From: a virus
Lineage: Duplodnaviria; Heunggongvirae; Uroviricota; Caudoviricetes
IMG/VR virus record: IMGVR_UViG_3300031555_002005
Length of the DNA: 64,000 nt
Direction: 5' to 3' (one strand)
Shown here: positions 12,072-43,200 of the stretch, piece after piece
Numbering within the stretch: the stretch's first letter is position 1
Layout: each line of letters starts with the position of its first letter
Translations under genes and position numbers: made by a program
The notes under the pieces: model-generated
Seen by the model: the letters and a program-made list of their open reading frames with translations, nothing else
Database searches by the model: none
Told to the model about the DNA's origin: nothing

Positions 12072-12944
12072 ATGGAGGAAATTAATAATGGCGTTTTAAC
12101 AATACAAAAAATTTCAAATGAAAAACAAAATTGGTGTGTTTATTTACATACAAACAAAATAAATGGGAAGAAATATGTTGGTATCACTGGCCAAAATCCA
12201 GAAGATAGATGGAGAAGAGATGGTAAAGGATACAGAACTCAAAAGTATTTTTGGAGAGCAATTCAGAAATATGGATGGAACAACTTTAAACATGAAGTTG
12301 TTTTATATAACGAAACTTTTAAATACGCATGTGCCGTAGAAAAATGTTTAATAAAGCATTATAAATCTAATGATCCAAGGTATGGTTATAATCTTACTGA
12401 TGGTGGCGAAGGCGTTTCTGGTAGAACTCCATGGAATTATGGAATACCAATGTCTGACGAAATGAAAGAAATAATACGGAAAGCAAATACTGGGAGAAAA
12501 ATATCCGAAGAAACACGTAAAAAATTAATTAATGCAAAAAAGGGTAAGCCTCCCAATAACGCAGGGCGTCCAATGTCAGACGAAACAAAAAGAAAATTGT
12601 CAATGTCGCTTATTGGACGAGTGTTTGATGATGAGACAAAACAAAAAATTAGCAATTCCAAAAAAGGAAAATACACAGGCGTAGATAGCTCTAGACATCA
12701 CCCAATTTATTGCGTTGAATTAAATGAAATTTTTTGGGGTGCAAAGGCTGTGAAAGATAAGTATGGTTTTACCACATGTAATATTGGAGCATGTTGTAGA
12801 GGAGAGCGAAATTATGCCAATAAACATCCAGACACCGGAGAGAAGCTTCATTGGATCTATTGTGATGATGCAATAAAAAATGGATATATTACATCATTTC
12901 AACTTGATAATTACTATAAAGGATTAATGGACAAAGGAGATTAA
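12072..12944 (+). CDS. GIY-YIG homing endonuclease with NUMOD-like repeats
   Basis: WCVYLHTN..KKYVGIT..RW..GYNLTDGGEG; three repeats of M/ISDETKxKL. Confidence 0.85.
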   Translation: MEEINNGVLTIQKISNEKQNWCVYLHTNKINGKKYVGITGQNPEDRWRRDGKGYRTQKYFWRAIQKYGWNNFKHEVVLYNETFKYACAVEKCLIKHYKSNDPRYGYNLTDGGEGVSGRTPWNYGIPMSDEMKEIIRKANTGRKISEETRKKLINAKKGKPPNNAGRPMSDETKRKLSMSLIGRVFDDETKQKISNSKKGKYTGVDSSRHHPIYCVELNEIFWGAKAVKDKYGFTTCNIGACCRGERNYANKHPDTGEKLHWIYCDDAIKNGYITSFQLDNYYKGLMDKGD

Positions 12945-17547: not shown

Positions 17548-18603
17548 TTGGAACAAATCAATAATAATTGGTGTGTTTATATGCACACCAATATCATAAA
17601 TAATAAAAAATATATTGGAATTACGTGCAAGAAGCCAGAACATAGGTGGAATGAAGGCAAAGGATATAAACATAATAGATATTTTTGGAATGCAATTCAA
17701 AAATATGGTTGGGAAAATTTTAAACATGAAATTGTTTCATTTAACCTCTCTCACGATGATGCTTGTAAAATGGAAAAATATTTAATCGCTTATTATAGCT
17801 CGAATAATTCGATATATGGTTATAATCTTACAAGTGGTGGAGATAGTGGGTTTTTACATACTGAAGAAACAAAAGAGAGAATAAGACAAGCTAATAGTGG
17901 TATAAGCAATGCAATGTACGGTATTTCTCCAAAAGAACGAATGGATGAAGATACGTACAAACAATGGCTTTATAAGCAACAGACAAATAAACCACACGGT
18001 GAAGATAATCCACAATATGGTGTATCTCCAAAAGAGAGAATGGATGAAACAACATACCAAGAATGGTTGTACAAACAGAAAAATAACAAGCCAAAAGGGA
18101 AAGACCATCCTATGTATGGAGTGTCGCCACAGGAGCGAATGGACGAAGATACATACAAAAATTGGTTGGAAAAAATGAAAAATCCAGCCAAAAGCATATC
18201 TGTTAAGTGCATTGAAACAGATAAAATATATAAAAGTGCAAGAGAAGCAGAAAGAGAAACAGGAATTGCACACAGTTCAATTGTGAAGTCTTGTATGTCA
18301 GAAGATCATTCGGTAATTGCTGGCGGATTTCATTGGTGTTTGGGCAGCGATAATTTTTCTATGGAGGATCTTGGCTTAGAATATAAAGGTAAGAGGTACA
18401 TTAGGTGCATAGAGACTAATCGTATTTATAAAACAGCCAGAGAAGTTAAGAGAGAAACAGGTTTGGATGACTCATCCATTAACAAATGTTGCAAGGGATA
18501 TTATTTCAAAACAGTTGGTGGCCTTCATTGGGAATATATTTATTTGCTTCCAGAACAATACGAAGAATGGTGCAAAACCAACAACTTAACAACACAAAAT
18601 TAA
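17548..18603 (+). CDS. GIY-YIG homing endonuclease with repeats
   Basis: WCVYMHTN..KKYIGIT..RW..GYNLTSGG; three repeats YGxSPKERMDExTY. Confidence 0.85.
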   Translation: MEQINNNWCVYMHTNIINNKKYIGITCKKPEHRWNEGKGYKHNRYFWNAIQKYGWENFKHEIVSFNLSHDDACKMEKYLIAYYSSNNSIYGYNLTSGGDSGFLHTEETKERIRQANSGISNAMYGISPKERMDEDTYKQWLYKQQTNKPHGEDNPQYGVSPKERMDETTYQEWLYKQKNNKPKGKDHPMYGVSPQERMDEDTYKNWLEKMKNPAKSISVKCIETDKIYKSAREAERETGIAHSSIVKSCMSEDHSVIAGGFHWCLGSDNFSMEDLGLEYKGKRYIRCIETNRIYKTAREVKRETGLDDSSINKCCKGYYFKTVGGLHWEYIYLLPEQYEEWCKTNNLTTQN

Positions 18604-21662: not shown

Positions 21663-21691
21663 TTGACAAATAGAAATAAATATGCTATAAT
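21663..21691 (+). promoter_or_regulatory. sigma70-type promoter (conserved cassette)
   Basis: cctcTTGACAaat-N17-TATAAT. Confidence 0.8.
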
Positions 21692-22079: not shown

Positions 22080-22108
22080 TTGACAAATAATGGAAAGTGT
22101 GCTATAAT
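22080..22108 (+). promoter_or_regulatory. sigma70-type promoter (first of tandem pair)
   Basis: ccccTTGACAaat-N17-TATAAT. Confidence 0.75.
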
Positions 22109-22158: not shown

Positions 22159-22187
22159 TTGACAAATGAAGAAAGATGTGCTATAAT
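22159..22187 (+). promoter_or_regulatory. sigma70-type promoter (second of tandem pair)
   Basis: ggcTTGACAaat-N17-TATAAT. Confidence 0.75.
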
Positions 22188-22233: not shown

Positions 22234-22578
22234 ATGGCAATTAAGTATTTTGTAAACGAAGAGAAGCGACAGGTTATTGGTCTGCTGGAAAACACTCGGT
22301 GGGACGCACTGAATAAGATTTGTAAGACTGTTGCGGATACTGATTTTTGTGTAGTGCCCAATGAAAAGTACATGATGCCCTCTGAATTCAGAACTGTTGT
22401 CACCTGTGATCCTAGAGATGAGTTTGATGTAGAGATTGGTAAGAAGATTGCCAAGGAGCGTCTACTAAAGAATTATTACGCATCTCTTGATAAGCGTGTG
22501 AACAAGTTCTTGGACGCTGCGCTGATCTTCAATGGAAAGGTATTCAAGACTCCTGAAACGCTTGAAAATAACACTTGA
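22234..22578 (+). CDS. hypothetical protein (114 aa)
   Basis: Start moved from box-internal ATG 22216 to ATG 22234. Confidence 0.75.
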   Translation: MAIKYFVNEEKRQVIGLLENTRWDALNKICKTVADTDFCVVPNEKYMMPSEFRTVVTCDPRDEFDVEIGKKIAKERLLKNYYASLDKRVNKFLDAALIFNGKVFKTPETLENNT

Positions 22579-22603
22579 CAAAATGTAAGATGTATGATAT
22601 AAT
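22575..22603 (+). promoter_or_regulatory. sigma70-type promoter for tRNA island 1
   Basis: TTGACA-N17-TATAAT overlapping stop of upstream ORF. Confidence 0.8.
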
Positions 22604-22857: not shown

Positions 22858-22983
22858 GACGGTGTAGCTCAGTTGGAAGAGCAATAGCCTTTGTCAGATG
22901 CAGGCTTGCACTAATTCAGTTCGATTCTGAAGTTTGGCACCATAAGCTATGGGTCGAGAGTTCGAGCCTCTCCACCGTCACCA
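22858..22983 (+). tRNA. interrupted tRNA: Lys(TTT) after removal of 50-nt nested insert (alternative register Gln TTG)
   Basis: acceptor gacggtg/caccgtc, D arm, anticodon stem atagc/gctat enclosing cttt+50 nt+taa, T arm gagag-ttcgagc-ctctc, CCA. Confidence 0.75.
22893..22942 (+). ncRNA. nested mini tRNA-like element (acceptor + T arm + ACCA)
   Basis: gtcagat/gtttggc 7-bp helix (3 G-U), ttcag-ttcgatt-ctgaa T arm, ends ACCA. Confidence 0.6.
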
Positions 22984-23450: not shown

Positions 23451-23604
23451 ATCCCAGTAGCTCAGCTGGATAGAGCAACGGTCTTCGGGGAGTTCGTTAA
23501 AAGGTAAGATACTTTAGGATAAAACCTAAGGAGATTACAGTTCGAGTCTGTTGCTCCCCACCATAAACCGTAGGTCGGGGGTTCGAGTCCCTCCTGGGAT
23601 ACCA
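23451..23604 (+). tRNA. interrupted tRNA: Arg(TCT) after removal of 77-nt nested insert (alternative register Arg TCG)
   Basis: acceptor atcccag/ctgggat, anticodon stem acggt/accgt enclosing cttc+77 nt+taa, T arm ggggg-ttcgagt-ccctc, CCA. Confidence 0.75.
23487..23563 (+). ncRNA. nested full-length tRNA-like element with 6-nt 'anticodon' loop
   Basis: ggggagt/gctcccc acceptor, tttagg-ataaaa-cctaag arm, acag-ttcgagt-ctgt T arm, ends ACCA. Confidence 0.6.
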
Positions 23605-23610
23605 AAATAT

Positions 23611-23745
23611 CGGGAACAGGTGGAATGGTATACACATCGGAACCATAACTGAGTTTTGATAAAAACTTGCCAACAGCAAATACGTGGACGTAAAATCCGA
23701 CGCTTTTGCAAGCATCCTTGGTTCGAATCCAAGGGTTCCCGACCA
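23611..23745 (+). tRNA. tRNA-like gene with ACAGCAA-module insert in anticodon-arm position (anticodon uncertain, possibly CAT)
   Basis: acceptor cgggaac/gttcccg, T arm ccttg-gttcgaatc-caagg, CCA; stem tcgga/tccga encloses hairpin agtttt-gata-aaaact + ACAGCAA (23673..23679). Confidence 0.55.
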
Positions 23746-23896: not shown

Positions 23897-24541
23897 ATGG
23901 AACAGAAGAAAAAAGATTATTCCAAGTATAGAAAAAAGTATTGGAGAGAACAAATAAAACATAGAGGTGTTCAATTTCTAGGTGGTGTGTGTCGTAATTG
24001 CGGAGGCGCTTTTGAAGATTGTTGCTATGATTTTCATCATTTAAATCCAAAAGAAAAAGACTTCACGATTGGAAATGTACAAACTAACGGAGCAAAAAGT
24101 TGGTTTAAAGTACGTGACGAATTAAAGAAGTGTGTACTATTATGTGCGAACTGTCATCGTCTTGCTCATGCAGGACTAATTGAAACAGATCTTCAGTTAT
24201 ATTTTAATGATGAATACTATGAATGGGATTTGACAAAATTTAAACTAATTGATTCATCAACTGGTTTGCCCAAGGATGCAAATATTACATGTCCTATATG
24301 CGGACAATACAAATCTCCAAATGCAAATAAATGTTCAGAGTGTGCAATGAAAGAGCAAATAAGATTTGAAGTCTCACGAGAAGAATTAAAAGAAATGATA
24401 TACACTATGGCATTTACTGATATTGGTAAAAAATATGGGGTTTCTGATAATTCTATTAGAAAAAGATGTGAAAAATTTGGATTACCATCTTACAAGAAAG
24501 ATATTCTAAAATACTCACCAGAAGAGTGGGCATCTATTTAG
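23897..24541 (+). CDS. HNH homing endonuclease
   Basis: FHHLNPKEKD...LLCANCHRLAH; C-terminal HTH-like tail. Confidence 0.85.
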   Translation: MEQKKKDYSKYRKKYWREQIKHRGVQFLGGVCRNCGGAFEDCCYDFHHLNPKEKDFTIGNVQTNGAKSWFKVRDELKKCVLLCANCHRLAHAGLIETDLQLYFNDEYYEWDLTKFKLIDSSTGLPKDANITCPICGQYKSPNANKCSECAMKEQIRFEVSREELKEMIYTMAFTDIGKKYGVSDNSIRKRCEKFGLPSYKKDILKYSPEEWASI

Positions 24542-25214: not shown

Positions 25215-25700
25215 ATGAATATTGAACAAGTAATTCTTTATAAAAGAATCGAAAAAGTACTTAAGAATTACCTAATAAATGACTTGGGTGATTCACAAAT
25301 GAAGAAAAAGGAAAGCTATTGTTTGAATTGTGGAGTTTCTATACCAAATAGAAATAAATATTGCTCAAACAAATGCCAACTAGATTTCCAATATAAAGAG
25401 TATATACAGAGATGGAAAAATGGGCTTGAAGATGGTATGAGAGGTGAATATCTTATATCAGTACACATTAGAAAATATTTAATGGAAAAGTTTGATAACA
25501 AATGCTCAAAATGTGGATGGGGAGAAATAAATCCTTATACCAAAAATGTACCACTAGAAGTCCATCATAAAGATGGAGATTATACCAATAATTCAGAAGA
25601 CAATCTTGACTTACTATGTCCAAATTGTCACTCATTAACAGAAACATATAAAGCTGCAAATAAAGGCAATGGAAGAAAAGATCGTAAAAAATACACATAA
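25215..25700 (+). CDS. HNH homing endonuclease
   Basis: EVHHKDGDYTNN..LDLLCPNCHSL; start may be internal ATG 25299. Confidence 0.85.
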   Translation: MNIEQVILYKRIEKVLKNYLINDLGDSQMKKKESYCLNCGVSIPNRNKYCSNKCQLDFQYKEYIQRWKNGLEDGMRGEYLISVHIRKYLMEKFDNKCSKCGWGEINPYTKNVPLEVHHKDGDYTNNSEDNLDLLCPNCHSLTETYKAANKGNGRKDRKKYT

Positions 25701-25914: not shown

Positions 25915-25962
25915 ATGATTGTTTGTAGTGAATCCAGTGTGGGGGACACCCCACCCGCTTAG
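25915..25962 (+). CDS. conserved 15-codon uORF, copy 1 (MIVCSESSVGDTPPA)
   Basis: GGAGGA 7 nt upstream; TAG stop sits in loop of hairpin cccac/gtggg; paralog at 30959. Confidence 0.4.
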   Translation: MIVCSESSVGDTPPA

Positions 25963-26208: not shown

Positions 26209-26299
26209 GGGGAATTGGCCGAGTGGTCGAAGGCAGCTGACTTGAAATCAGTAGACGGTGCTGAGCCGTCCGTGGGTTCGAATCCTACATTCCCCGCCA
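26209..26299 (+). tRNA. tRNA-Ser (TGA), class II
   Basis: acceptor ggggaat/attcccc, loop ctTGAaa, long variable arm, G73, CCA. Confidence 0.9.
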
Positions 26300-26344
26300 C
26301 AAAATGGGCTTACGGCTTCACCCAACCAAAGAAGCCGACGATAT

Positions 26345-26436
26345 GGAGCAGTACCCAAGTGGCTATAAGGGGACGCCCTGCTAAGGCGTTAGACCGAGCA
26401 ATCGGTGCGAGAGTTCGAATCTCTCCTGCTCCGCCA
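26345..26436 (+). tRNA. tRNA-Ser (GCT), class II
   Basis: acceptor ggagcag/ctgctcc, loop ctGCTaa, long variable arm, CCA. Confidence 0.9.
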
Positions 26437-27064
26437 TGCACTCAAGGGCACTACAGATGTTACCGATATTAGAAAACTCATATCGCCCTCGTAAATACTA
26501 AGAATGGTGCGAAGTATTTACACAAATCTCACGCAACACTACTTATTGCAGTAAGTTGATTGAATAAAGGTGTTGCTTATATAGGGGAGTCGTTCAAAGG
26601 AAGGACTGTAGTCTCCAAAACTACCAATGGGATATCGTGATTCTCCTCCCCTGCCAAGTAAGTGATACTTAAATACTGCAGAATAAAGGATTTGCCTTCC
26701 AGGGAACTGTGCCTGCATAGATCCCGTTTACTGGTGTTGATGCCAAAGTACACGGTGCAGTAGCCAGCTGATAAAGCCAACAACAAAGATTGGCCGCTTG
26801 TTTCGTGCGGCATATAAAAGTGAAACTCGCTAGTCACAGTGTGAACCTGAAAAAGATGCTTCGTCAAAAGCTTAAAATGGCATCGCTCTTCAATAATTGG
26901 CGGTTGTTGGAAATCTAAAGAAAGGAAATTATGTATCATGTGGAAGACTTTTAAAAAGAGACTTTTTGATGCTATTGTTGAATACGGTAAGTTTGTTCAG
27001 TTTATGTATTCCTAATAGCGTTATTAAGTGGATCATTGAGCCTAAAAAGCTTAATGATTCCCTC
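26437..27064 (+). ncRNA. 628-nt ORF-free structured region; large ncRNA candidate
   Basis: No supported + strand ORF; helices gcaacac/gtgttgc, ggggag/ctcccc and many local hairpins; flanked by tRNAs. Confidence 0.4.
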
Positions 27065-27093
27065 TTGACAAATCTTAAAACATGTGATATAAT
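27065..27093 (+). promoter_or_regulatory. sigma70-type promoter (conserved cassette)
   Basis: cctcTTGACAaat-N17-TATAAT. Confidence 0.8.
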
Positions 27094-27322: not shown

Positions 27323-27922
27323 TTGACATTGGCGAAACATGTAACTACAGAAGAAATAGCAACAAGAATAAAAAATACTTTTAAACAAAATGTTTCATTA
27401 GTTGGAGAATATAAGAATAAACGATCAAAATTAACATTACATTGTAATGATTGTGGACATGAATGGGAATCTCCATCAAGTAGTGTTATATATGGAGATA
27501 GACACGAGTGTCCTCGGTGTGGAAGACATGCAAAACAATTGAATGAATTTCAATGTACAAACTGTGGACAAGTTGTGTATCGTAAAGATTCAGACATTAA
27601 AAAGAATCAAACAGGTAATTTCTTTTGTTCTCAACAATGTGGAAATGAGTTTAAAAATCGAATACGAAAAGAAAGTGGAGAATGGGATAACTCGTTAAGC
27701 TATAGACGGAAAGCATTTGAAACTTATGAACATTTATGTTGTGTATGCGGTTGGAATGAAGATGAAAGAATTTTAGAAGTTCATCATAAAGATGAAGATC
27801 GTACAAACAATATGGTAAATAATCTATGTATTCTATGTCCTACATGTCATAGAAAAATAACATTAGGATATTATGAATTAACAGATGATTTCAAGCTAGT
27901 TGATAAAAATCAAAAGAATTAA
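27323..27922 (+). CDS. HNH homing endonuclease with zinc ribbons
   Basis: EVHHKDEDRTNN..CILCPTCHRKI; several CxxC pairs. Confidence 0.85.
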   Translation: MTLAKHVTTEEIATRIKNTFKQNVSLVGEYKNKRSKLTLHCNDCGHEWESPSSSVIYGDRHECPRCGRHAKQLNEFQCTNCGQVVYRKDSDIKKNQTGNFFCSQQCGNEFKNRIRKESGEWDNSLSYRRKAFETYEHLCCVCGWNEDERILEVHHKDEDRTNNMVNNLCILCPTCHRKITLGYYELTDDFKLVDKNQKN

Positions 27923-28212: not shown

Positions 28213-28240
28213 TTGACAAATCAGAATTATATGATATAAT
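28213..28240 (+). promoter_or_regulatory. sigma70-type promoter for the ACAGCAA RNA array
   Basis: ccccTTGACAaat-N16-TATAAT. Confidence 0.8.
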
Positions 28241-28257
28241 ACAAGCAGTTCAAGGGA

Positions 28258-28274
28258 ACAGTACAAAATTAATA
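28258..28274 (+). promoter_or_regulatory. ACAATACAAAATTAAT box copy (variant)
   Basis: acagtacaaaattaata in leader of a non-coding array. Confidence 0.55.
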
Positions 28275-28275
28275 A

Positions 28276-28369
28276 AGGCGCACACAGCAAATTTACTATA
28301 TGGTTAAAATTTTTTATGTTTGTGTTAAAAAATGAGAAGGTTCAAATCCTTTAAAAATTTCATGCGCCT
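28276..28369 (+). ncRNA. ACAGCAA-module RNA unit A
   Basis: outer helix aggcgca/tgcgcct, 5' bulge cACAGCaa (28284..28290), inner helix aaattt/aaattt, cargo with T-arm-like aagg-ttcaaat-cctt. Confidence 0.55.
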
Positions 28370-28379
28370 TGACAAAAAA

Positions 28380-28442
28380 AGACACTAACAGCAACTTTAT
28401 TAACTATACAATTTGGGCTTGTAAATATTGTTAATAGTGTCT
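28380..28442 (+). ncRNA. ACAGCAA-module RNA unit B
   Basis: outer helix agacact/agtgtct, bulge aACAGCAA (28388..28394), inner helix attaac/gttaat. Confidence 0.55.
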
Positions 28443-28449
28443 TGAATAT

Positions 28450-28561
28450 GGGAACGTCCGGTGGCAGTAAATAAGTGCATGGAGTGGGCAGCACACACAG
28501 CAATTTTACTTAACAATTTCTGGAAAAAATTGACTCCTTGGTTCAACTCCGAGGGTTCCCA
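28450..28561 (+). ncRNA. tRNA-like RNA with permuted ACAGCAA module (unit C)
   Basis: acceptor-like gggaac/gttccc, T arm cttgg-ttcaact-ccgag; hairpin gtgc-N12-gcac + ACAGCAA (28497..28503); agtaaa/tttact. Confidence 0.5.
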
Positions 28562-28582
28562 AAAATCCCACTAACTTAATAT

Positions 28583-28712
28583 GCGGAAGTAGCTCAGCTG
28601 GGAGAGCAATAGTATTTATTTAAAAATGTGTTTAGATTAACACTAACAGCAATTTTTATTTAAAGAAGAAGTTGGGGACTATGGGTCGTAGGTTCGAGCC
28701 CTACCTTCCGCA
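28583..28712 (+). tRNA. tRNA-like gene with permuted ACAGCAA module in anticodon loop (unit D; anticodon unassigned)
   Basis: acceptor gcggaag/cttccgc, D and T arms canonical, stem atagt/actat encloses 64 nt: taaaaa-[gtgtt-tagatt-aacac]-tAACAGCAA-ttttta. Confidence 0.6.
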
Positions 28713-28724
28713 TCAACTAAATAT

Positions 28725-28852
28725 GCCAGAGTAGCTCAGTTGGTAGAGCACGTATATATCAACCAACGTGGTATGAAAATTTCACGCACAGCAATTTTAA
28801 TGATTCTTGCCTTTTAAGCACGTTGTCGTGGGTTCGAGTCCCATCTCTGGCA
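28725..28852 (+). tRNA. tRNA-like gene with ACAGCAA module (unit E; anticodon unassigned)
   Basis: acceptor gccagag/ctctggc, D/T arms canonical; insert has hairpin cgtg-N12-cacg + cACAGCAA (28788..28794); flanked by direct repeat agcacgt. Confidence 0.55.
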
Positions 28853-28862
28853 AACTTTATAT

Positions 28863-28981
28863 GGCGCAATGGTGTAATGGTAGCACAACGTAATAATTGA
28901 GGTTTGTTAAAATCTTAAACTGCAATTTTACAATGCATGATCACGCCGTAGGTTGAAGTTCGATTCTTCATTGCGTCTCCA
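28863..28981 (+). tRNA. tRNA-like gene with variant module ACTGCAA (unit F; anticodon unassigned)
   Basis: acceptor ggcgcaa/ttgcgtc, T arm tgaag-ttcgatt-cttca, CCA; hairpin gttt-N11-aaac + TGCAATTTTA. Confidence 0.5.
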
Positions 28982-28998
28982 AATTAACAATTAAATAA

Positions 28999-29118
28999 AG
29001 GCACATACAGCAATTTTAAATTCTGAAGCAGCCATTTTGCTTTGTAGTATAACTGGTTAGTACGCAGGACTGATAATCCTGAAATGCTGGTTCGAGTCCA
29101 GTCTTTAAAAATGTGCCT
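28999..29118 (+). ncRNA. ACAGCAA-module RNA unit G carrying an internal tRNA-like domain
   Basis: outer aggcacat/atgtgcct, bulge ACAGCAA (29007..29013), inner ttttaaa/tttaaaa; cargo has arm cagga-ctGATaa-tcctg and T arm ctgg-ttcgagt-ccag. Confidence 0.6.
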
Positions 29119-29129
29119 TGCAATTAAAA

Positions 29130-29235
29130 GAGAGACGAACAGCAAATTGATTGAATTAAAGAAGATAGAAAACTTATTTACTAATTATTGTTGTTTTATT
29201 TATGTATTAGATTATTTATCACTTTTAAGTCTCTC
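29130..29235 (+). ncRNA. ACAGCAA-module RNA unit H
   Basis: outer gagagac/gtctctc, bulge gAACAGCAA (29139..29145), AT-rich cargo. Confidence 0.5.
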
Positions 29236-29250
29236 GAATAAATAAAATCT

Positions 29251-29313
29251 CCAAAGACGCTAACAGCAATGTACGACTTGACTGCAAATCAATAATCGTA
29301 AAATGCGTCTTGG
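29251..29313 (+). ncRNA. ACAGCAA-module RNA unit I
   Basis: outer ccaaagacgc/gcgtcttgg, bulge tAACAGCAA (29263..29269), inner tacga/tcgta. Confidence 0.55.
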
Positions 29314-29353
29314 ATTTTAGTAATAAAATCAAAACTTTTAGGAGGAACAAAAA

Positions 29354-30907
29354 ATGGAATTTATGAGTGCAGTTAGACAGACTCTCAATAATGAGTACAA
29401 TGTGTCTATCACTGAGAACGGCGCAGTTGGTTATAGAACCACTGGCAAGGAGCTGCTTGACCTGAACTTTGCAGTAGCATCTCTTCGTAAGATGACCGAT
29501 GCAGAAGTCGCAAAGAGATTCAAGAAGGCTTTTTGTGAAGATCAGGTTCTCGCAATGAAGTGGCTGTTCTACGCAAGAGACGTTCGTGGTGGTTTGGGTG
29601 AGCGTAGACTGTTCAGAGTTGTTCTGGCAGATCTGGTACAGTCCAATCCTGAAATGGTTATTCCTGTCATGAATCTGATTCCTGAGTATGGTCGCTACGA
29701 TGACCTGTGGTGTCTGTTAGATGACAAGGAAGCAGCTAATGTGATTTATCAGATTGTTGATAATCAGCTGAAGCGTGACTGGGAAAACATGGCTTCAAAG
29801 AAGCCTATTTCTATTCTGGCAAAGTGGATGCCTTCTATCAATGCATCTTCTGCTAAGACCAAGGAATACGGAAAGAAGCTGTGCAAGGCTCTGAAGATGA
29901 CTGAGCGTGAATACCGCAAGGCTCTGAGCAAGCTTCGTGCATATCTGGATGTTGTTGAAGTTAAGATGTCCGATAAGAACTGGTCTGCAATTAAGTATGA
30001 AGCAGTTCCTTCTCGTGCAAATCTGATTTACAACAGCGCATTCCTGAGAAATGACGAAGCAAGACGTAGAGAATATCTTGGCCAGCTTGAAAAGGGCGAG
30101 ACTAAGATTAACGCATCTACTCTGTTCCCTCACGATATTGCTCATAAGTATACTAACAACTCATGGGGTCGTGGTCTAAAGGCAAAGGATGCAACCATTG
30201 AAGCTCTGTGGAAGGCGCTACCTGACACTGTAAATGGCTGTGGTAATACTATTGTTGTTGCTGACGGCTCTGGTAGTATGACTTGCACTGTTGACAATCA
30301 CTCTCGTGTTACTGCACTTGAAGTTGCAAACGCACTGGCAATTTACTTTGCTGAGCACTCTTCTGGTCAGTTCAAGGATAAGTACATTACTTTCTCTGAA
30401 AGACCTCAGTTTGTTGACTTCAGCAATTGTAAGACTCTGCATGACAAGCTACACACTGCACTAATGCATAATGAAGTTGCAAATACTAACATCGAAAAGG
30501 TGTTTGATTTGATTCTGACTTCTGCGGTCAATAACCATATGCATCAGGAAGATCTTCCTCAGAACATCCTGATCATCTCTGATATGGAGTTTGATAGCTG
30601 TGCAACTTCTGGCAATGTTGATCGTTGGAGCTACCGTAACAGACCTACTCAGAAGCTATTCGATGTTATCGCTCAGAAGTACGCAAGAGCAGGTTACAAG
30701 ATGCCTCGTCTGGTATTCTGGAATGTAAACTCTCGCACTGGTACTATTCCTGTAAAGGAAAATGACCTTGGTGTGGCACTGGTCAGCGGTTTCTCTGTAA
30801 ACGTTGCCAAGATGGTCATGAGTGGCAAGACTGATCCTTTCGAGTGTCTGCTTGAAACTCTGAACTCTGAGAGATATGCTCCTGTTGAGGAAGCTTTAAA
30901 TCAGTAA
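29354..30907 (+). CDS. DUF2828 / TROVE(Ro60)-like protein with C-terminal vWA domain
   Basis: N-terminal ITENGAVGYRTTGKELLDLNF signature as I recall for DUF2828; MIDAS-like VVADGSGSM; strong RBS AGGAGG. Confidence 0.75.
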   Translation: MEFMSAVRQTLNNEYNVSITENGAVGYRTTGKELLDLNFAVASLRKMTDAEVAKRFKKAFCEDQVLAMKWLFYARDVRGGLGERRLFRVVLADLVQSNPEMVIPVMNLIPEYGRYDDLWCLLDDKEAANVIYQIVDNQLKRDWENMASKKPISILAKWMPSINASSAKTKEYGKKLCKALKMTEREYRKALSKLRAYLDVVEVKMSDKNWSAIKYEAVPSRANLIYNSAFLRNDEARRREYLGQLEKGETKINASTLFPHDIAHKYTNNSWGRGLKAKDATIEALWKALPDTVNGCGNTIVVADGSGSMTCTVDNHSRVTALEVANALAIYFAEHSSGQFKDKYITFSERPQFVDFSNCKTLHDKLHTALMHNEVANTNIEKVFDLILTSAVNNHMHQEDLPQNILIISDMEFDSCATSGNVDRWSYRNRPTQKLFDVIAQKYARAGYKMPRLVFWNVNSRTGTIPVKENDLGVALVSGFSVNVAKMVMSGKTDPFECLLETLNSERYAPVEEALNQ

Positions 30908-30958: not shown

Positions 30959-31006
30959 ATGATTGTATCAGCTAATTCCAACTTGGAGGATTGTCCACCA
31001 GCTTAG
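30959..31006 (+). CDS. conserved 15-codon uORF, copy 2 (MIVSANSNLEDCPPA)
   Basis: GGAGGActTTGCCTATGATTGT shared with copy 1; TAG in loop of hairpin tccacc/ggtgga. Confidence 0.4.
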   Translation: MIVSANSNLEDCPPA

Positions 31007-31041
31007 GTGGAGTCCTGGGTAAGACTTAAAACTGCCCATTC

Positions 31042-31165
31042 AGACATTAACAGCAAACAATAATTACTTGGTTGCGAGGTTAGCTTAGCTGGTCTAAAGC
31101 AATAGATGTGAAAATCTATGATCACTGGTTCGAACCCAGTACCTTGTGTTTAAGTGATAATGTCT
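31042..31165 (+). ncRNA. ACAGCAA-module RNA unit J carrying a tRNA-like domain
   Basis: outer agacatt/aatgtct, bulge aACAGCAA (31049..31056), inner ttactt/aagtga; cargo 31074..31148 cloverleaf-like with 6/8-nt 'anticodon' loop. Confidence 0.6.
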
Positions 31166-31176
31166 AGTTTCTATAT

Positions 31177-34474: not shown

Positions 34475-34502
34475 TTGACAAAATGGTAAAATGTGTTATA
34501 AT
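34475..34502 (+). promoter_or_regulatory. sigma70-type promoter
   Basis: TTGACA-N16-TATAAT; box starts 2 nt after -10. Confidence 0.8.
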
Positions 34503-40123: not shown

Positions 40124-41509
40124 ATGGCTTATACAGCATTTATTACAAGAATTAAGAATCTGCGTACACACCCTAAGGCGGATCGACTGCAGATGGGTGA
40201 GTGCTTTGGTAACACTGTAATTGTCTCTCTGGAATACGAGGACAACCAGCTTGGCATTTACTTCCCTTCTGATGGACAGATTAGCACTGCATTTGCAGAA
40301 GCAAATAACCTGCTTCGCAAGAAGGATGAAAACGGCAATAACATTGGCGGTTACATGGATCCCGACAAGCGCAACGTCACTGCTATTAAGCTTCGTGGAG
40401 AAAAGTCTGATGGCCTGTTCCTGCCTCTGAAGTCTCTTGAGCCTTTTGGTGACATTACCACTCTGCGTGAGGGTGACCGAATTGATAACTTTAATGGACA
40501 TGAGATTTGCTGCAAGTATGTACCTTTTAAGCGTGAACGTACTGCCGCAGGTGGAGCAGGAAAGCGCATTAAGCGTAGAGCTAAGAGAAGCATTGCACCT
40601 CTGTTTTATGAGCATATGGACACTGAGCAGCTCGCCTACAATCTGGCAGCTTTTAAGCCCGGTGACGAGATTGAAATCACTCTAAAGATGCATGGCACTT
40701 CTCAGCGAACTGCACACCTACCTGTGTTTAAGGACTACAAGCGCACAATCTGGGACAAACTATTCCGTCGTGAAGGTACTCCTGTTTATGATTGGGGTTA
40801 CGTCTCTGGCACTCGTCGTACTGTTCTAGAGAATTTTGAAGGTGGATATTATGGATCTAACGAGTTCCGTGAAGCACATTCTAAGTTCTTTGAGGGCAAG
40901 CTGTGGAAGGGCGAAGAGGTCTACTACGAGGTGGTTGGTTTCACTCATACTGGCGCACCTATTATGTCTACGGCAGACAATAAGAAGCTGAACGACAAGG
41001 AGTTTGTTAAGCAGTATGGAAAGACTACTACTTTCTCTTATGGTTGTGCCCCTGATGGTGTAAATTCCGCAGATGGAGTTATTCCTCAGTCTGATATCTA
41101 CGTTTACCGTATGACAATGACCAATGAAGATGGTGATGTTGTCGAGTACACTCCTGATTTCATGCGCTATCGTTGTGAGCAGATGGGTGTTAAGACTGTC
41201 CCTGTGATGTGGAAGGGCACTATTCCTTACGCAGATTGGCTTGAAGCTAACACGTGGGAAAGCGCAGGGCATTATGCAATTACTCGTGCAGAAAAGTACT
41301 ATGATGGTCCCGACCCTATTGGCAAGACTCATGTCCGTGAAGGCGTTGTAGTTCGTATTCTGAACCGTCCTAAATTCTGTGCATACAAGCATAAGAACTG
41401 GTCTTTCAAGGCTCTTGAAGGAATTGTTAAGGTTGAAGCTGAGGCTCCTGATATGGAAGAAGCCGATGGCATTAATGAGGAAGTGATGACTGATGAATTT
41501 TCACAGTGA
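40124..41509 (+). CDS. ATP-dependent RNA ligase (Rnl2/Rnl5-like, N-terminal OB-like module)
   Basis: Motif I LKMHGTS (KxHG as in T4 Rnl2/DraRnl per memory); N-terminal ~150 aa extra domain. Confidence 0.7.
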   Translation: MAYTAFITRIKNLRTHPKADRLQMGECFGNTVIVSLEYEDNQLGIYFPSDGQISTAFAEANNLLRKKDENGNNIGGYMDPDKRNVTAIKLRGEKSDGLFLPLKSLEPFGDITTLREGDRIDNFNGHEICCKYVPFKRERTAAGGAGKRIKRRAKRSIAPLFYEHMDTEQLAYNLAAFKPGDEIEITLKMHGTSQRTAHLPVFKDYKRTIWDKLFRREGTPVYDWGYVSGTRRTVLENFEGGYYGSNEFREAHSKFFEGKLWKGEEVYYEVVGFTHTGAPIMSTADNKKLNDKEFVKQYGKTTTFSYGCAPDGVNSADGVIPQSDIYVYRMTMTNEDGDVVEYTPDFMRYRCEQMGVKTVPVMWKGTIPYADWLEANTWESAGHYAITRAEKYYDGPDPIGKTHVREGVVVRILNRPKFCAYKHKNWSFKALEGIVKVEAEAPDMEEADGINEEVMTDEFSQ

Positions 41510-42302
41510 TGAATGGATCATGCGGAATGTTCGAGAGCACTACAACGAGGCTCTCGAACACTTCCCCGAAGATAGAATTGTAGGTATCTTTTATCAGGGC
41601 AGCGGTAACTACGGCCTTGACTATGAAGGTTCTGATGTAGACACCAAGCTGATTGTCACGCCAACCTTTGAAGATATTGCAATGAATAAAAAGGCAGTAA
41701 GTACAACTCATATCAGAGAGAATGAAGAGCACATCGATTTTAAGGATATTAGACTCTATATCCAGACTTTCAGAAAGCAAAACTTGAACTTCCTAGAAAT
41801 CCTGTTTACTAAATATGCAATTATCAATCCTATGTATAAAGATGAATGGGATAGACTTGTAAAGGCTCGTGAGAAAATTGCACGCTATGCACCTGTACAG
41901 GCTATTAAGTCTATGAAGGGCATTGCAAAAGAAAAGTATCATGCAATGGAACATCACTATCCTGCACGAATGGCATGGATTGAGAAGTTTTCTTACGATC
42001 CGAAACAACTGCATCATCTACTGAGAGTTAATGAATATATCAGCAGATACATTGACGGCGAATCATATGAAGATTGCTTGATTTCAAAAATGCCAGACTA
42101 TTTACAGTCAGTAAAACTTGGTTTTCACAACCTGGATGATGCTCGCATGATTGCTAATTGGGCTATTGGCTGTATTGATAAAATGTGCGATAAGTATCTA
42201 GAGACTTGTTCAACTGAAGTTGATAAAGATGTTGATGTTCTACTTGATGATGTGCAGTACAACATTATGAAGATTGCTATTAAGAAAGAAATTGGTGATT
42301 AA
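41493..42302 (+). CDS. Pol-beta superfamily nucleotidyltransferase (RNA-ligase-associated type)
   Basis: GSGNYGLDYEGSDVD (GS..DxD NTase signature); overlaps ligase gene end. Confidence 0.7.
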   Translation: MNFHSDEWIMRNVREHYNEALEHFPEDRIVGIFYQGSGNYGLDYEGSDVDTKLIVTPTFEDIAMNKKAVSTTHIRENEEHIDFKDIRLYIQTFRKQNLNFLEILFTKYAIINPMYKDEWDRLVKAREKIARYAPVQAIKSMKGIAKEKYHAMEHHYPARMAWIEKFSYDPKQLHHLLRVNEYISRYIDGESYEDCLISKMPDYLQSVKLGFHNLDDARMIANWAIGCIDKMCDKYLETCSTEVDKDVDVLLDDVQYNIMKIAIKKEIGD

Positions 42303-42303
42303 A

Positions 42304-43200
42304 ATGAACAGACCTAGTTTAATTTTACTTGTCGGAATTCCCGGCTCAGGCAAAACTACATACGCAGAAAAATATATTAAAGAGAATCCCAATACAGTAC
42401 ATCTTTCCTCCGACAAGATTCGTGAAGAACTTTGGGGTAATGAAGCTACTCAGGGCGACAACAACAAAGTGTTTTCTCTGATGCAGTCTAGAGCAATTGA
42501 AGCACTGAATAACGGACAGTCTGTGGTATATGACGCTACGAACATTACAAGAAAAGACAGATCTTACATTATCACTCTTTGCCCTAAGTTTGCTAAGATT
42601 GAGTGCCATATTATTTGGGCACCTATTGAGACTTGCATCGAGAGAGACGCTGCCAGAGAACGCACTGTTGGCAAGGAAGTCATTGATAGAATGCTTAAGC
42701 GATTCCAGGCACCTTATTATGATGAAGGGTTTGATGGTATCTATATTCGTTATTCTGATGACAATTTTAATGCAAAAGAATACAGTAAAAAGATAGTTAT
42801 GAACATGGATATCCCTCATGATAACCCTCATCACACTTTGAATATTTTAGATCATTGTGCTGAAGCAGGATCATATTTTTATGAAAGAGGTCAGTATGAC
42901 GAAGTGTGGGTGGCAGCTATGTATCATGACATAGGAAAACCATACGTAAAAGCATTTGTTGATAGCAAAGGTAATCCTTGTGAGAATGCTCATTACTACC
43001 AGCATCAATGTTTGGGTTCATATATGTATTATGGAATGACTAGTGAAATTGGTGGTACTAGTGACACATGGGTAAAAATTGCTTGGCTGATTTCCACACA
43101 TATGGATCCTTATCTAAATACGAAATATTACAATAGACTTCCTGCTTATCTAAAGAAACAGGTAGATTTGCTTCACGAGGCGGACAGGAATGCACATTAA
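42304..43200 (+). CDS. polynucleotide kinase (P-loop) fused to HD phosphohydrolase (Pnkp-like)
   Basis: Start ATG 42304; GIPGSGKTT; C-terminal MYHDIGKP ... HMDP. Confidence 0.75.
   Translation: MNRPSLILLVGIPGSGKTTYAEKYIKENPNTVHLSSDKIREELWGNEATQGDNNKVFSLMQSRAIEALNNGQSVVYDATNITRKDRSYIITLCPKFAKIECHIIWAPIETCIERDAARERTVGKEVIDRMLKRFQAPYYDEGFDGIYIRYSDDNFNAKEYSKKIVMNMDIPHDNPHHTLNILDHCAEAGSYFYERGQYDEVWVAAMYHDIGKPYVKAFVDSKGNPCENAHYYQHQCLGSYMYYGMTSEIGGTSDTWVKIAWLISTHMDPYLNTKYYNRLPAYLKKQVDLLHEADRNAH

Follow-up and report, generated by a model that had tools for sequence, protein, structure and literature searches.

Putative Y-RNA-like phage RNAs carrying tRNA mimics adjoin the gene of a divergent Ro60-like protein

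Canonical Ro60 proteins of bacteria and phages bind Y RNAs via the sequence GNCGAAN0-1G, those of vertebrates via GGUCCGA (PMC4201824), and the bacterial Y RNA YrlA bears a tRNA-like domain (Chen et al. 2014, PMC4201824). The Ro60 of Thermus phage phiLo binds two Y-like RNAs, Yrl1 and Yrl2, as well as the host polynucleotide phosphorylase (PNPase) (PMC12135203; PDB 9l5y). For the Listeria phage protein CKA15_055, HHpred indicated a resemblance to Rsr; the protein was present in purified virions, and Y RNAs were speculated to lie nearby (PMC12282133). Bas63 gp130, a Ro60-like protein encoded upstream of tRNA genes, counters the Ppl defence, and some of these "tRNAs" were suggested to be Y RNAs (PMC11482910). 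Overexpression of LeBron gp53 is toxic (PMC13148394). Here we describe an array of nine RNA units sharing the motif ACAGCAA in a stretch of 64,000 nucleotides from a virus of the Caudoviricetes (IMG/VR record IMGVR_UViG_3300031555_002005), the whole of which is referred to as the window. The array precedes a gene for a Ro60-like protein of 517 amino acids (open reading frame (ORF) 29354-30907, + strand). We regard it as likely that it represents a Y-RNA-like class of RNAs which would tether tRNA mimics to this divergent phage Ro protein.

The locus resembles Rsr/YrlA systems in that the gene of a protein with Ro60-fold ring and vWA domain adjoins co-oriented small RNAs. As in Rsr/Y RNA loci, one gene can have several RNA copies, and as in YrlA, a stem with a conserved motif on its 5' strand, in our case a putative protein-binding stem, is joined to a tRNA-like domain. 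Unlike Rsr, the protein consists of DUF2828 and DUF7788 and not of TROVE. Furthermore, the motif is ACAGCAA instead of the GNCGAAN0-1G or GGUCCGA of Y RNAs, and unlike YrlA the arrays comprise up to 9-11 units, occur in two topologies and carry as cargo anything from an anticodon arm up to a complete tRNA. The phiLo protein is a canonical TROVE protein, whereas the system proposed here combines a divergent family with another motif and tRNA-linked arrays. CKA15_055, encoded by a cultured phage like Bas63 gp130, is a direct homologue of the ORF 29354 product, with three ACAGCAA units immediately upstream. Bas63 gp130 probably belongs to the DUF2828 family, too, as judged from genus and gene position; the Felixounavirus homologues have modules among their tRNAs. 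Both the CKA15_055 and the Bas63 papers guessed at Y RNAs nearby, but neither the RNAs nor the motif were identified there. Literature searches on DUF2828 and on ACAGCAA returned nothing relevant.

In Pfam, the product of ORF 29354-30907 matched exclusively DUF2828 (2.5e-35) and DUF7788 (3.4e-45) at E <= 0.01; TROVE (PF05731) was not matched at this threshold. A plain sequence search of the PDB gave no match. With a family profile, the best PDB matches were Ro60 structures (E 0.003), aligned at the region of the metal ion-dependent adhesion site (MIDAS). An AlphaFold2 (AF2) model built from a 90-sequence alignment of representatives of 50% identity clusters comprises an alpha-helical ring and a vWA domain (predicted local distance difference test (pLDDT) 94, predicted template modelling score (pTM) 0.93); a shallow alignment of 18 sequences had given an unusable model with a pLDDT of 55. 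Foldseek returned five Ro60/TROVE structures at E <= 0.001 and nothing else, with a moderate superposition as indicated by template modelling (TM) scores of 0.45-0.57. The MIDAS residues (DxSxS) D304, S306 and S308 were invariant in alignments of 62 and 90 sequences. According to the model, the product has the complete Ro60 fold. The DUF2828 family is large: 6955 protein clusters were counted at 50% identity, along with 706 phage records, several of which are annotated as "Ro-like RNA-binding protein".

A previous reading of the window from its sequence only had proposed a promoter-driven, ORF-free array of nine units, and this proposal held. The array spans positions 28213-29312 on the + strand, and the ORF scan of the window detected no ORF of at least 60 amino acids between 28203 and 29353. 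A sigma-70-type promoter at 28213-28240 (+; TTGACA-16-TATAAT with TG extension) agrees with the consensus in 12 of 12 positions. A counterpart promoter was found 5' of the arrays in two relatives (L001 and L003) and in Listeria phage CKA15. There is no terminator-like site between the promoter and ORF 29354. On the + strand, ACAGCAA occurs eight times from 28284 to 29269, compared to 0.07 copies predicted from base composition, and the ninth unit contains the variant ACTGCAA at 28919. The units comprise about 60-130 nt each; their distance to the Ro60-fold gene, which follows downstream on the same strand, is 42-1079 nt. Both additional ACAGCAA copies listed by the sequence-only reading are present on the + strand outside of the array, one at 23673 (unit 23611-23745) and one at 31050 (unit 31041-31167), the latter corrected from 31049. 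The whole array is embedded in a phage tRNA array (21-22 tRNA calls) interspersed with HNH endonuclease ORFs.

In its stand-alone form, the module has a covarying 7-bp helix, followed on the 5' strand by two variable nucleotides and the invariant ACAGCAA and past the 3' strand by an invariant unpaired G. Six units of the window (A, B, G, H, I and J, all on the + strand like the remaining units) exhibit a helix of 7-9 bp whose 5' strand ends 0-2 nt ahead of the motif, so that the outer helix assigned to them earlier was found again. Unconstrained folding yielded this helix in A, B, G, H and I; the folded stretch for J ended before its 3' strand. Unit A (28275-28371) has the helix AAGGCGC (28275-28281)/GCGCCTT (28364-28370), ACAGCAA at 28284-28290 and the 3' G at 28371. 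Its cargo, i.e. the variable part of the unit, includes the T-arm look-alike GAAGGTTCAAATCCTTT, and orthologues with compensatory changes were found in at least 12 loci. Unit B (28379-28444) is a short stand-alone unit with the helix AAGACAC/GTGTCTT, ACAGCAA at 28388-28394 and the G at 28444; it scored 48.4 bits (E 9e-11) with covariance model R1. In unit G (28998-29120), the helix AAGGCAC (28998-29004)/GTGCCTT (29113-29119) is combined with ACAGCAA at 29007-29013 and the G at 29120, and the unit shares 74.6% identity over 113 nt with a unit of Bacillus phage vB_BcoS-136. Unit H (29130-29236) contains the helix GAGAGAC/GTCTCTC (3' strand 29229-29235), ACAGCAA at 29139-29145, the G at 29236 and a long, A/U-rich cargo; its orthologues either keep GAGAGAC or show compensatory GAGATGC, GAGACAC or GAGAGGC. 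Unit I (29254-29312; helix AAGACGC/GCGTCTT with the 3' strand at 29305-29311, ACAGCAA 29263-29269, G 29312) scored 34.7 bits with model R1 and ends 41 nt ahead of the start codon of ORF 29354. Outside of the array, unit J (31041-31167) has the helix AGACATTA/TAATGTCT, ACAGCAA at 31050-31056 and the G at 31167.

A single helix abutting the motif is weak evidence, since a helix of at least 7 bp also abuts 18-20% of random window positions when partners within 260 nt are allowed. An alignment was made of 83 non-redundant stand-alone units from 25 loci and the window, anchored on the motif and the 3' strand. In these 83 units the 7-bp helix is 99.8% paired, with double changes at all seven pairs, and its covariation score is 0.658 compared to 0.214 in shuffles, none of 500 shuffles reaching 0.658. 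The covariation expected by the sequence-only reading is thus present. Slid partner strands, used as a control, paired to only 31-50%. The base after the 3' strand is a G in 83 of 83 units, although it was not used when choosing the partner strand, and the base preceding the helix is an A in 80%. At the two bases preceding the motif, pairing drops to about 60%. Some pairs of the helix are G-U, and the spacing of its arms ranges from 27 to more than 130 nt. Variants among orthologues include AAGGCGC/GCGCCTT, AAGACGC/GCGTCTT, AAGATGC/GCATCTT, GAGAGAC/GTCTCTC, GAGACAC/GTGTCTC and TAGTCAC/GTGACTA. The earlier statement that helix sequences differ while pairing is kept is therefore right with regard to the pairing but not to a free choice of sequence: a G occupies position -7 in 94% of the units, and a C is found at position -3 in 90%. 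The consensus reads 5'-A-[A/G/T]AG[R][C/G/A][R]C-NN-ACAGCAA-N(Y)UUA ... AAA-NN-G[Y][G/C][Y]CU[U/C/A]-G-3'.

An inner helix in fixed register, formed by TTTA with TAAA, was rejected, as pairing reached only 46.7% when this register was imposed. The motif is thus placed in an internal loop or junction of variable form and not in the clean bulge between an outer and an inner helix that had been described from the window. Covariance models were built from pseudo-units trimmed of their cargo; they perform well on short units and mis-pair units with long cargo such as G.

A second form of the module is embedded in tRNA-like bodies. There, the same 7-bp helix, ending at position -3, forms a hairpin immediately 5' of the motif. 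Of the 18 array-located cases found, 13 close this hairpin with a 4-nt loop of the type G-N-N-A (GAAA, GACA, GCCA, GTTA, GGTA, GATA, GTAA and GAGA). Such hairpins occur at 2.8% of random positions, and 7% of those have G..A loops. The first G and the last A of the loop match the unpaired 3' G and the 5' A of the stand-alone form, indicating that the two forms are circular permutations of one structure. The permuted hairpin is also present in many orthologues. In the window, the permuted topology proposed earlier is seen in units E and F, both of which have a 7-bp hairpin with a GAAA or GTTA loop, two nucleotides and the motif. In unit E (28725-28852), a tRNA body with a 66-nt insert, the hairpin GTGGTAT-GAAA-ATTTCAC (28768-28785; 7 bp with one mismatch) is followed by GC, ACAGCAA at 28788-28794 and, 3' of the motif, by the anticodon-loop look-alike CTTTTAA; the orthologous hairpins covary and keep G-N-N-A loops. 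Unit F (28863-28978), a tRNA body with a 56-nt insert, has the hairpin GAGGTTT-GTTA-AAATCTT at 28899-28916, then AA and the variant ACTGCAA at 28919-28925, and its orthologues bear ACAGCAA or ACTGCAA. For C and D, from which the permutation had originally been described, the result is mixed. Unit D (28583-28712) is a 5-bp version with a 6-nt loop (hairpin 28628-28643, ACAGCAA 28646-28652) in a 61-nt insert replacing the anticodon loop of a tRNA body. Unit C (28450-28572), tRNA-like with acceptor-like ends and a T-arm, has only the invariant 4-bp stem GTGC(12 nt)GCAC ahead of ACAGCAA at 28497-28503. Its 12-nt loop (GAGTGGG) may pair with CCCACT in the 3' trailer at 28567-28572, with a compensatory change in L003 (GGTGGG with CCCACC). 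C is the least well resolved unit. Unit K (23611-23745) outside of the array is tRNA-like, too, with acceptor and T-arm, and its ACAGCAA at 23673-23679 is flanked by CTTGC (23664-23668)/GCAAG (23708-23712); with a helix of only 5 bp it is the weakest copy.

The cargo was assessed with the Rfam tRNA model, which gave 42-53 bits for D, E, F and the cargos of G and J, and found no tRNA-like domain in units B, H and I. D, E and F (51.1, 47.9 and 41.8 bits) keep intact acceptor, D and T arms and have inserts of 61, 66 and 56 nt, respectively, in place of the anticodon loop or the distal stem; in D the alignment sets the insert within the 5-bp anticodon stem. According to the Infernal alignments, these three units have no 7-nt anticodon loop on a 5-bp stem and hence fail as canonical tRNAs. 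ARAGORN did not call D and E, and read F as a 95-nt "tRNA-Cys" with its anticodon within the ACTGCAA motif. As anticipated from the sequence, G and J carry whole tRNA-like bodies inside the module helix (49 and 53 bits): in G, positions 29041-29110 make up a complete body like that of tRNA-Ile(GAU), which lacks CCA and whose A/U acceptor stem is weak, and in J, positions 31074-31148 form a tRNA-like body with a 6-nt anticodon loop. An orthologue of unit J was found at L010 4204. In unit I, the cargo at 29278-29292 is the anticodon-stem-loop look-alike TTGA-CTGCAAA-TCAA. The hairpin of this gene-proximal unit has the shape of an anticodon arm and the frame GA-CU-NNN-A(A/C)-UC throughout the relatives (look-alikes at L001 ~5935, L006 ~2935, L021 ~1008 and L025 ~5720). 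Its triplet reads GCA in the window and, among the relatives, UUU (seven loci), GUU (three loci), GUA or UAC, while a mycobacteriophage has GCU. In relatives encoding tRNA-Lys, the loop and the two closing pairs of the look-alike are identical to the anticodon arm of that tRNA.

Many close relatives of the ORF 29354 product (65-97% identity) were found in gut and rumen metagenomes, the closest genome-binned ones in gut metagenome-assembled genomes (MAGs) of Clostridia and Lachnospiraceae. Their loci were obtained from IMG/VR and by exact-protein look-up; a metagenome scan gave only two loci, and a profile-based homologue search returned chiefly the same clade. All five IMG/VR loci, and those look-up loci holding upstream sequence, have 5-8 units directly upstream of the gene. 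The module also adjoins distant DUF2828 homologues with 34-40% identity, always on the gene strand. Bacillus phage vB_BcoS-136 has nine modules within its tRNA array, Listeria phages LMTA-34 and CKA15 three directly upstream of the gene with an own promoter, and Salmonella phage Mushroom (FelixO1-like) four among its tRNAs. Three modules are located directly downstream in both Staphylococcus phage S-CoN_Ph13 and Mycobacterium phage Jubie, the latter with G+C-rich helices such as TGGACCCC/GGGGTCCA. Campylobacter phage PC5 and Enterococcus phage VRE9_4 have two modules and one module upstream, respectively. Like a YrlA RNA, the array lies within about 4 kb of a Ro60-fold gene and on its strand, and the same applies across the relatives.

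This linkage was also seen in loci chosen without regard to the motif. In 80 GTDB loci picked by protein similarity alone, ACAGCAA occurred 232 times on the gene strand and 54 times on the opposite strand, compared to an average of about 41 for forty permuted 7-mers. For full modules the numbers were 137 and 5, respectively, compared to a mean of 3.2 and a maximum of 10 for the permuted 7-mers, and at least one module was present in 59 of the 80 loci. Conversely, IMG/VR was scanned for AAGACACNNACAGCAA. Among the matches listed, a DUF2828 profile match in the fetched stretch accompanied 18 of 40 loci with at least two modules, 3 of 15 with one and 0 of 65 with none, always on the strand of the modules. 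A held-out covariance model (R2), trained on the clade of the window only, gave 11 matches at E <= 0.01 in loci of Bacillus, Staphylococcus, Campylobacter, Enterococcus and Mycobacterium phages, all of them on the gene strand and none opposite; the Listeria and Salmonella units did not reach E = 1. The strand-specific linkage thus extends across phyla. Since the same handle adjoins the gene in very different phages, the module RNA is probably the RNA partner of the adjacent Ro60-like protein.

Several observations weigh against this reading. The invariance of the motif is partly due to ascertainment, as the search used exact ACAGCAA or ACTGCAA and variant motifs are therefore under-counted. 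The pairing statistics are inflated because 3' partner strands were picked by complementarity, which is offset by the invariant 3' G and the held-out model. No module was detected by the exact-motif search within 3 kb in 21 of the 80 protein-selected loci; these may have variant motifs or modules more than 3 kb away. The only copy in Vibrio phage XZ1, just upstream of the gene, is doubtful. Ten of the 11 units do not contain the Ro-binding sequence GNCGAAN0-1G, and the lone GNCGAA in unit H (29134) is not followed by the G; the vertebrate-type motif GGTCCGA is absent, too. Finally, a very abundant RNA of Listeria phage CKA15, which makes up to two-thirds of the phage transcripts according to published data, was considered as a transcript of the module array and rejected, as this RNA lies at 26236-26727 and the units at 25216-25575; it belongs to a neighbouring locus. 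This locus (L149) is promoter-driven, ORF-free and about 500 nt long, lies 0.7 kb upstream of the ACAGCAA units and matches no Rfam family at gathering thresholds.

Rfam 15 contains no family matching the module RNA. The best match of the YrlA model (RF02553) in the window reached 25.1 bits at 28680-28757, compared to a gathering cut-off of 69, and spans two adjacent tRNA bodies, with the T-arm taken from unit D and the D-arm from unit E; in 12 related loci the model found no matches. Membership in YrlA was rejected on these grounds. Of the parallel to YrlA and Ro drawn by the sequence-only reading, the analogy remains, consisting of the Ro60 fold, the linkage and the tRNA-like cargo. Its idea of a recognition module fused to tRNA-like domains is supported by the Ro60 fold, the co-oriented linkage and the cargos of D-G and J, and the binding itself would be analogous to that of Y RNAs.

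According to our proposal, the array and the downstream gene would be co-transcribed from one promoter as a family of small structured RNAs, and the transcript would presumably be processed into units. The handle, formed by helix, ACAGCAA and G, could then dock on the Ro60-like ring protein encoded at 29354-30907, with a tRNA, a truncated tRNA or an anticodon-arm/T-arm mimic as the variable part. Such a complex might behave like a Ro-Y RNA particle, in which the RNA tethers the ring and vWA protein to tRNA-recognising factors. Alternatively it might be that the RNA presents tRNA-shaped baits to those factors. Candidates are host tRNA-targeting nucleases or enzymes of tRNA repair or modification, and the outcome would be a tRNA pool that is protected or quality-controlled during infection. 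The context fits tRNA protection or repair: the window combines its large tRNA array with ORFs for a P-loop kinase and an RNA-ligase-like protein, and genes for RtcB-type ligases lie near the Listeria homologue.

If the proposed class exists, its significance lies in several points. The DUF2828 family reaches model and therapeutic phages, including FelixO1-like, P100/A511-like, Staphylococcus and Enterococcus phages and cluster L mycobacteriophages. A signature of sequence and structure found across phyla provides concrete candidate ligands for DUF2828 proteins, which can be used in searches, mutation, binding and structure work. The signature describes a modular attachment of tRNA-shaped cargo to a protein in two topologies, and it flags many annotated or missed phage "tRNAs" as chimeric non-tRNA RNAs. 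Bas63 gp130, a probable family member, was reported to counter a bacterial defence system.

A more specific reading, which we hold possible, if clearly less probable than the Y-RNA-like class in general, is an array of exchangeable tRNA decoys. Here, the Ro-like protein would hold RNAs whose cargo copies the anticodon arm or body of particular tRNAs, with the variable triplet of the gene-proximal unit as an example. The particle would serve to bait, sequester or sense immune nucleases of the host that cleave tRNAs, or further defences directed at tRNAs, and a swap of cargo would retarget it quickly. As the Listeria phage homologue was found in purified virions, a decoy particle might be delivered with the genome.

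Four other explanations were considered, each of which covers a part of the data; none accounts for the strict strand-specific gene linkage across phyla. With a low probability, the modules are punctuation or processing signals for long tRNA-array transcripts, read by a host or phage RNase without a direct role of the Ro-like protein. In the window and in the Bacillus and Salmonella phages, units are indeed found within tRNA arrays, some wrap complete tRNA-like bodies, and the 7-bp helix plus its unpaired 3' G is reminiscent of an acceptor stem with the discriminator base. However, the modules of the Mycobacterium, Staphylococcus, Listeria and Campylobacter phages cluster at the DUF2828 gene and not around tRNAs, and most true tRNAs of the window have no module. 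Gene and modules co-occur, moreover, as seen from the absence of DUF2828 from the 65 module-less loci among the IMG/VR matches listed.

We rate it just as improbable that the module is a removable insert of tRNA genes. D, E and F would then be interrupted tRNAs, and G and J caged pre-tRNAs, resealed by a phage RNA ligase after excision of the module, with the Ro-like protein as maturation cofactor. Points in its favour are the tRNA scores of D, E and F, whose inserts of 56-66 nt sit at the anticodon arm, the CTTTTAA loop retained in E, the RNA-ligase-like ORF and P-loop kinase encoded in the window, and two further tRNA(CAU)-like genes bearing inserts. But A, B, H and I as well as nearly all units of distant phages contain no releasable tRNA, removal of the insert would leave poor anticodon stems, and neither a bulge-helix-bulge splice signature nor a group I core is visible or found by Rfam.

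Somewhat less probable still is a function of the modules as cis-regulatory sites, by which the Ro-like protein would act on its own mRNA, instead of as free-standing RNAs. Array and gene stand under one promoter without a terminator in between, unit I ends 41 nt before the start codon, and an upstream placement is common. This explanation conflicts with the modules downstream of the gene in Mycobacterium, Staphylococcus and Salmonella phages and with the window copies located 5.7 kb ahead of the gene and 140 nt past it, and up to nine copies with elaborate tRNA-like cargo are more than feedback needs. A site at the level of DNA formed by ACAGCAA and inverted repeats, i.e. a target of a homing endonuclease, a recombination site or the site of a DNA-binding protein, is very improbable in spite of the HNH and GIY-YIG endonuclease ORFs scattered across the region, given the strict strand bias (137 modules vs 5), the arm spacing of 27 to more than 130 nt, the G-U pairs, the T-arm and tRNA-like cargo on the strand of the modules and the presence of the module in phages without nearby endonuclease genes.

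Some further features of the window and its relatives were recorded. Two tRNA(CAU)-like genes at 22858-22980 and 23451-23601 (55.8 and 52.4 bits with the Rfam tRNA model) have a 50-78-nt insert in the anticodon loop (CT|insert|CATAA) without ACAGCAA. The inserts resemble a T-arm minihelix or a whole nested tRNA, and ARAGORN called an inner "tRNA-???" at 23487-23563; possibly, these genes form a second class of chimeric or interrupted tRNAs. About 10 kb downstream, the RNA-ligase-like ORF 40124-41509 (weak Pfam match, E 1e-4) and a P-loop kinase of the AAA_33/polynucleotide-kinase type at 42274-43200 look like a tRNA-repair gene set. In Salmonella phage Mushroom (L024, NC_041923.1), the tRNA strand given by RefSeq is opposite to that of the Rfam tRNA model, which is the gene strand. 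Four full modules on one strand were found in a record labelled as a giant-virus MAG (L034, IMGVR_UViG_GVMAG-M-3300017963-53), and no DUF2828 homologue was found in the fetched 11-kb stretch.

The window contains seven perfect TTGACA-16/17-TATAAT promoters with TG (21663-21691, 22080-22108, 22159-22187, 22575-22603, 27065-27093, 28213-28240 and 34475-34502). A common leader, (C)AATACAAAATTAAT, lies about 15-30 nt past most of them, and a near-identical one precedes the arrays of L001 and L003. Two paralogous ORFs of 15 codons (25915-25962 and 30959-31006), encoding MIVCSESSVGDTPPA and MIVSANSNLEDCPPA, have strong ribosome-binding sites and end with Pro-Pro-Ala-stop, with a G+C-rich hairpin behind each; a role as leader peptides or stalling elements is conceivable. 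Three HNH/zinc-ribbon ORFs lie between tRNA genes (23897-24541, 25215-25700 and 27323-27922), GIY-YIG/NUMOD3 endonuclease ORFs were found at 12072-12944 and 17548-18603, and a reverse transcriptase ORF (RVT_1) is located at 1208-2467.

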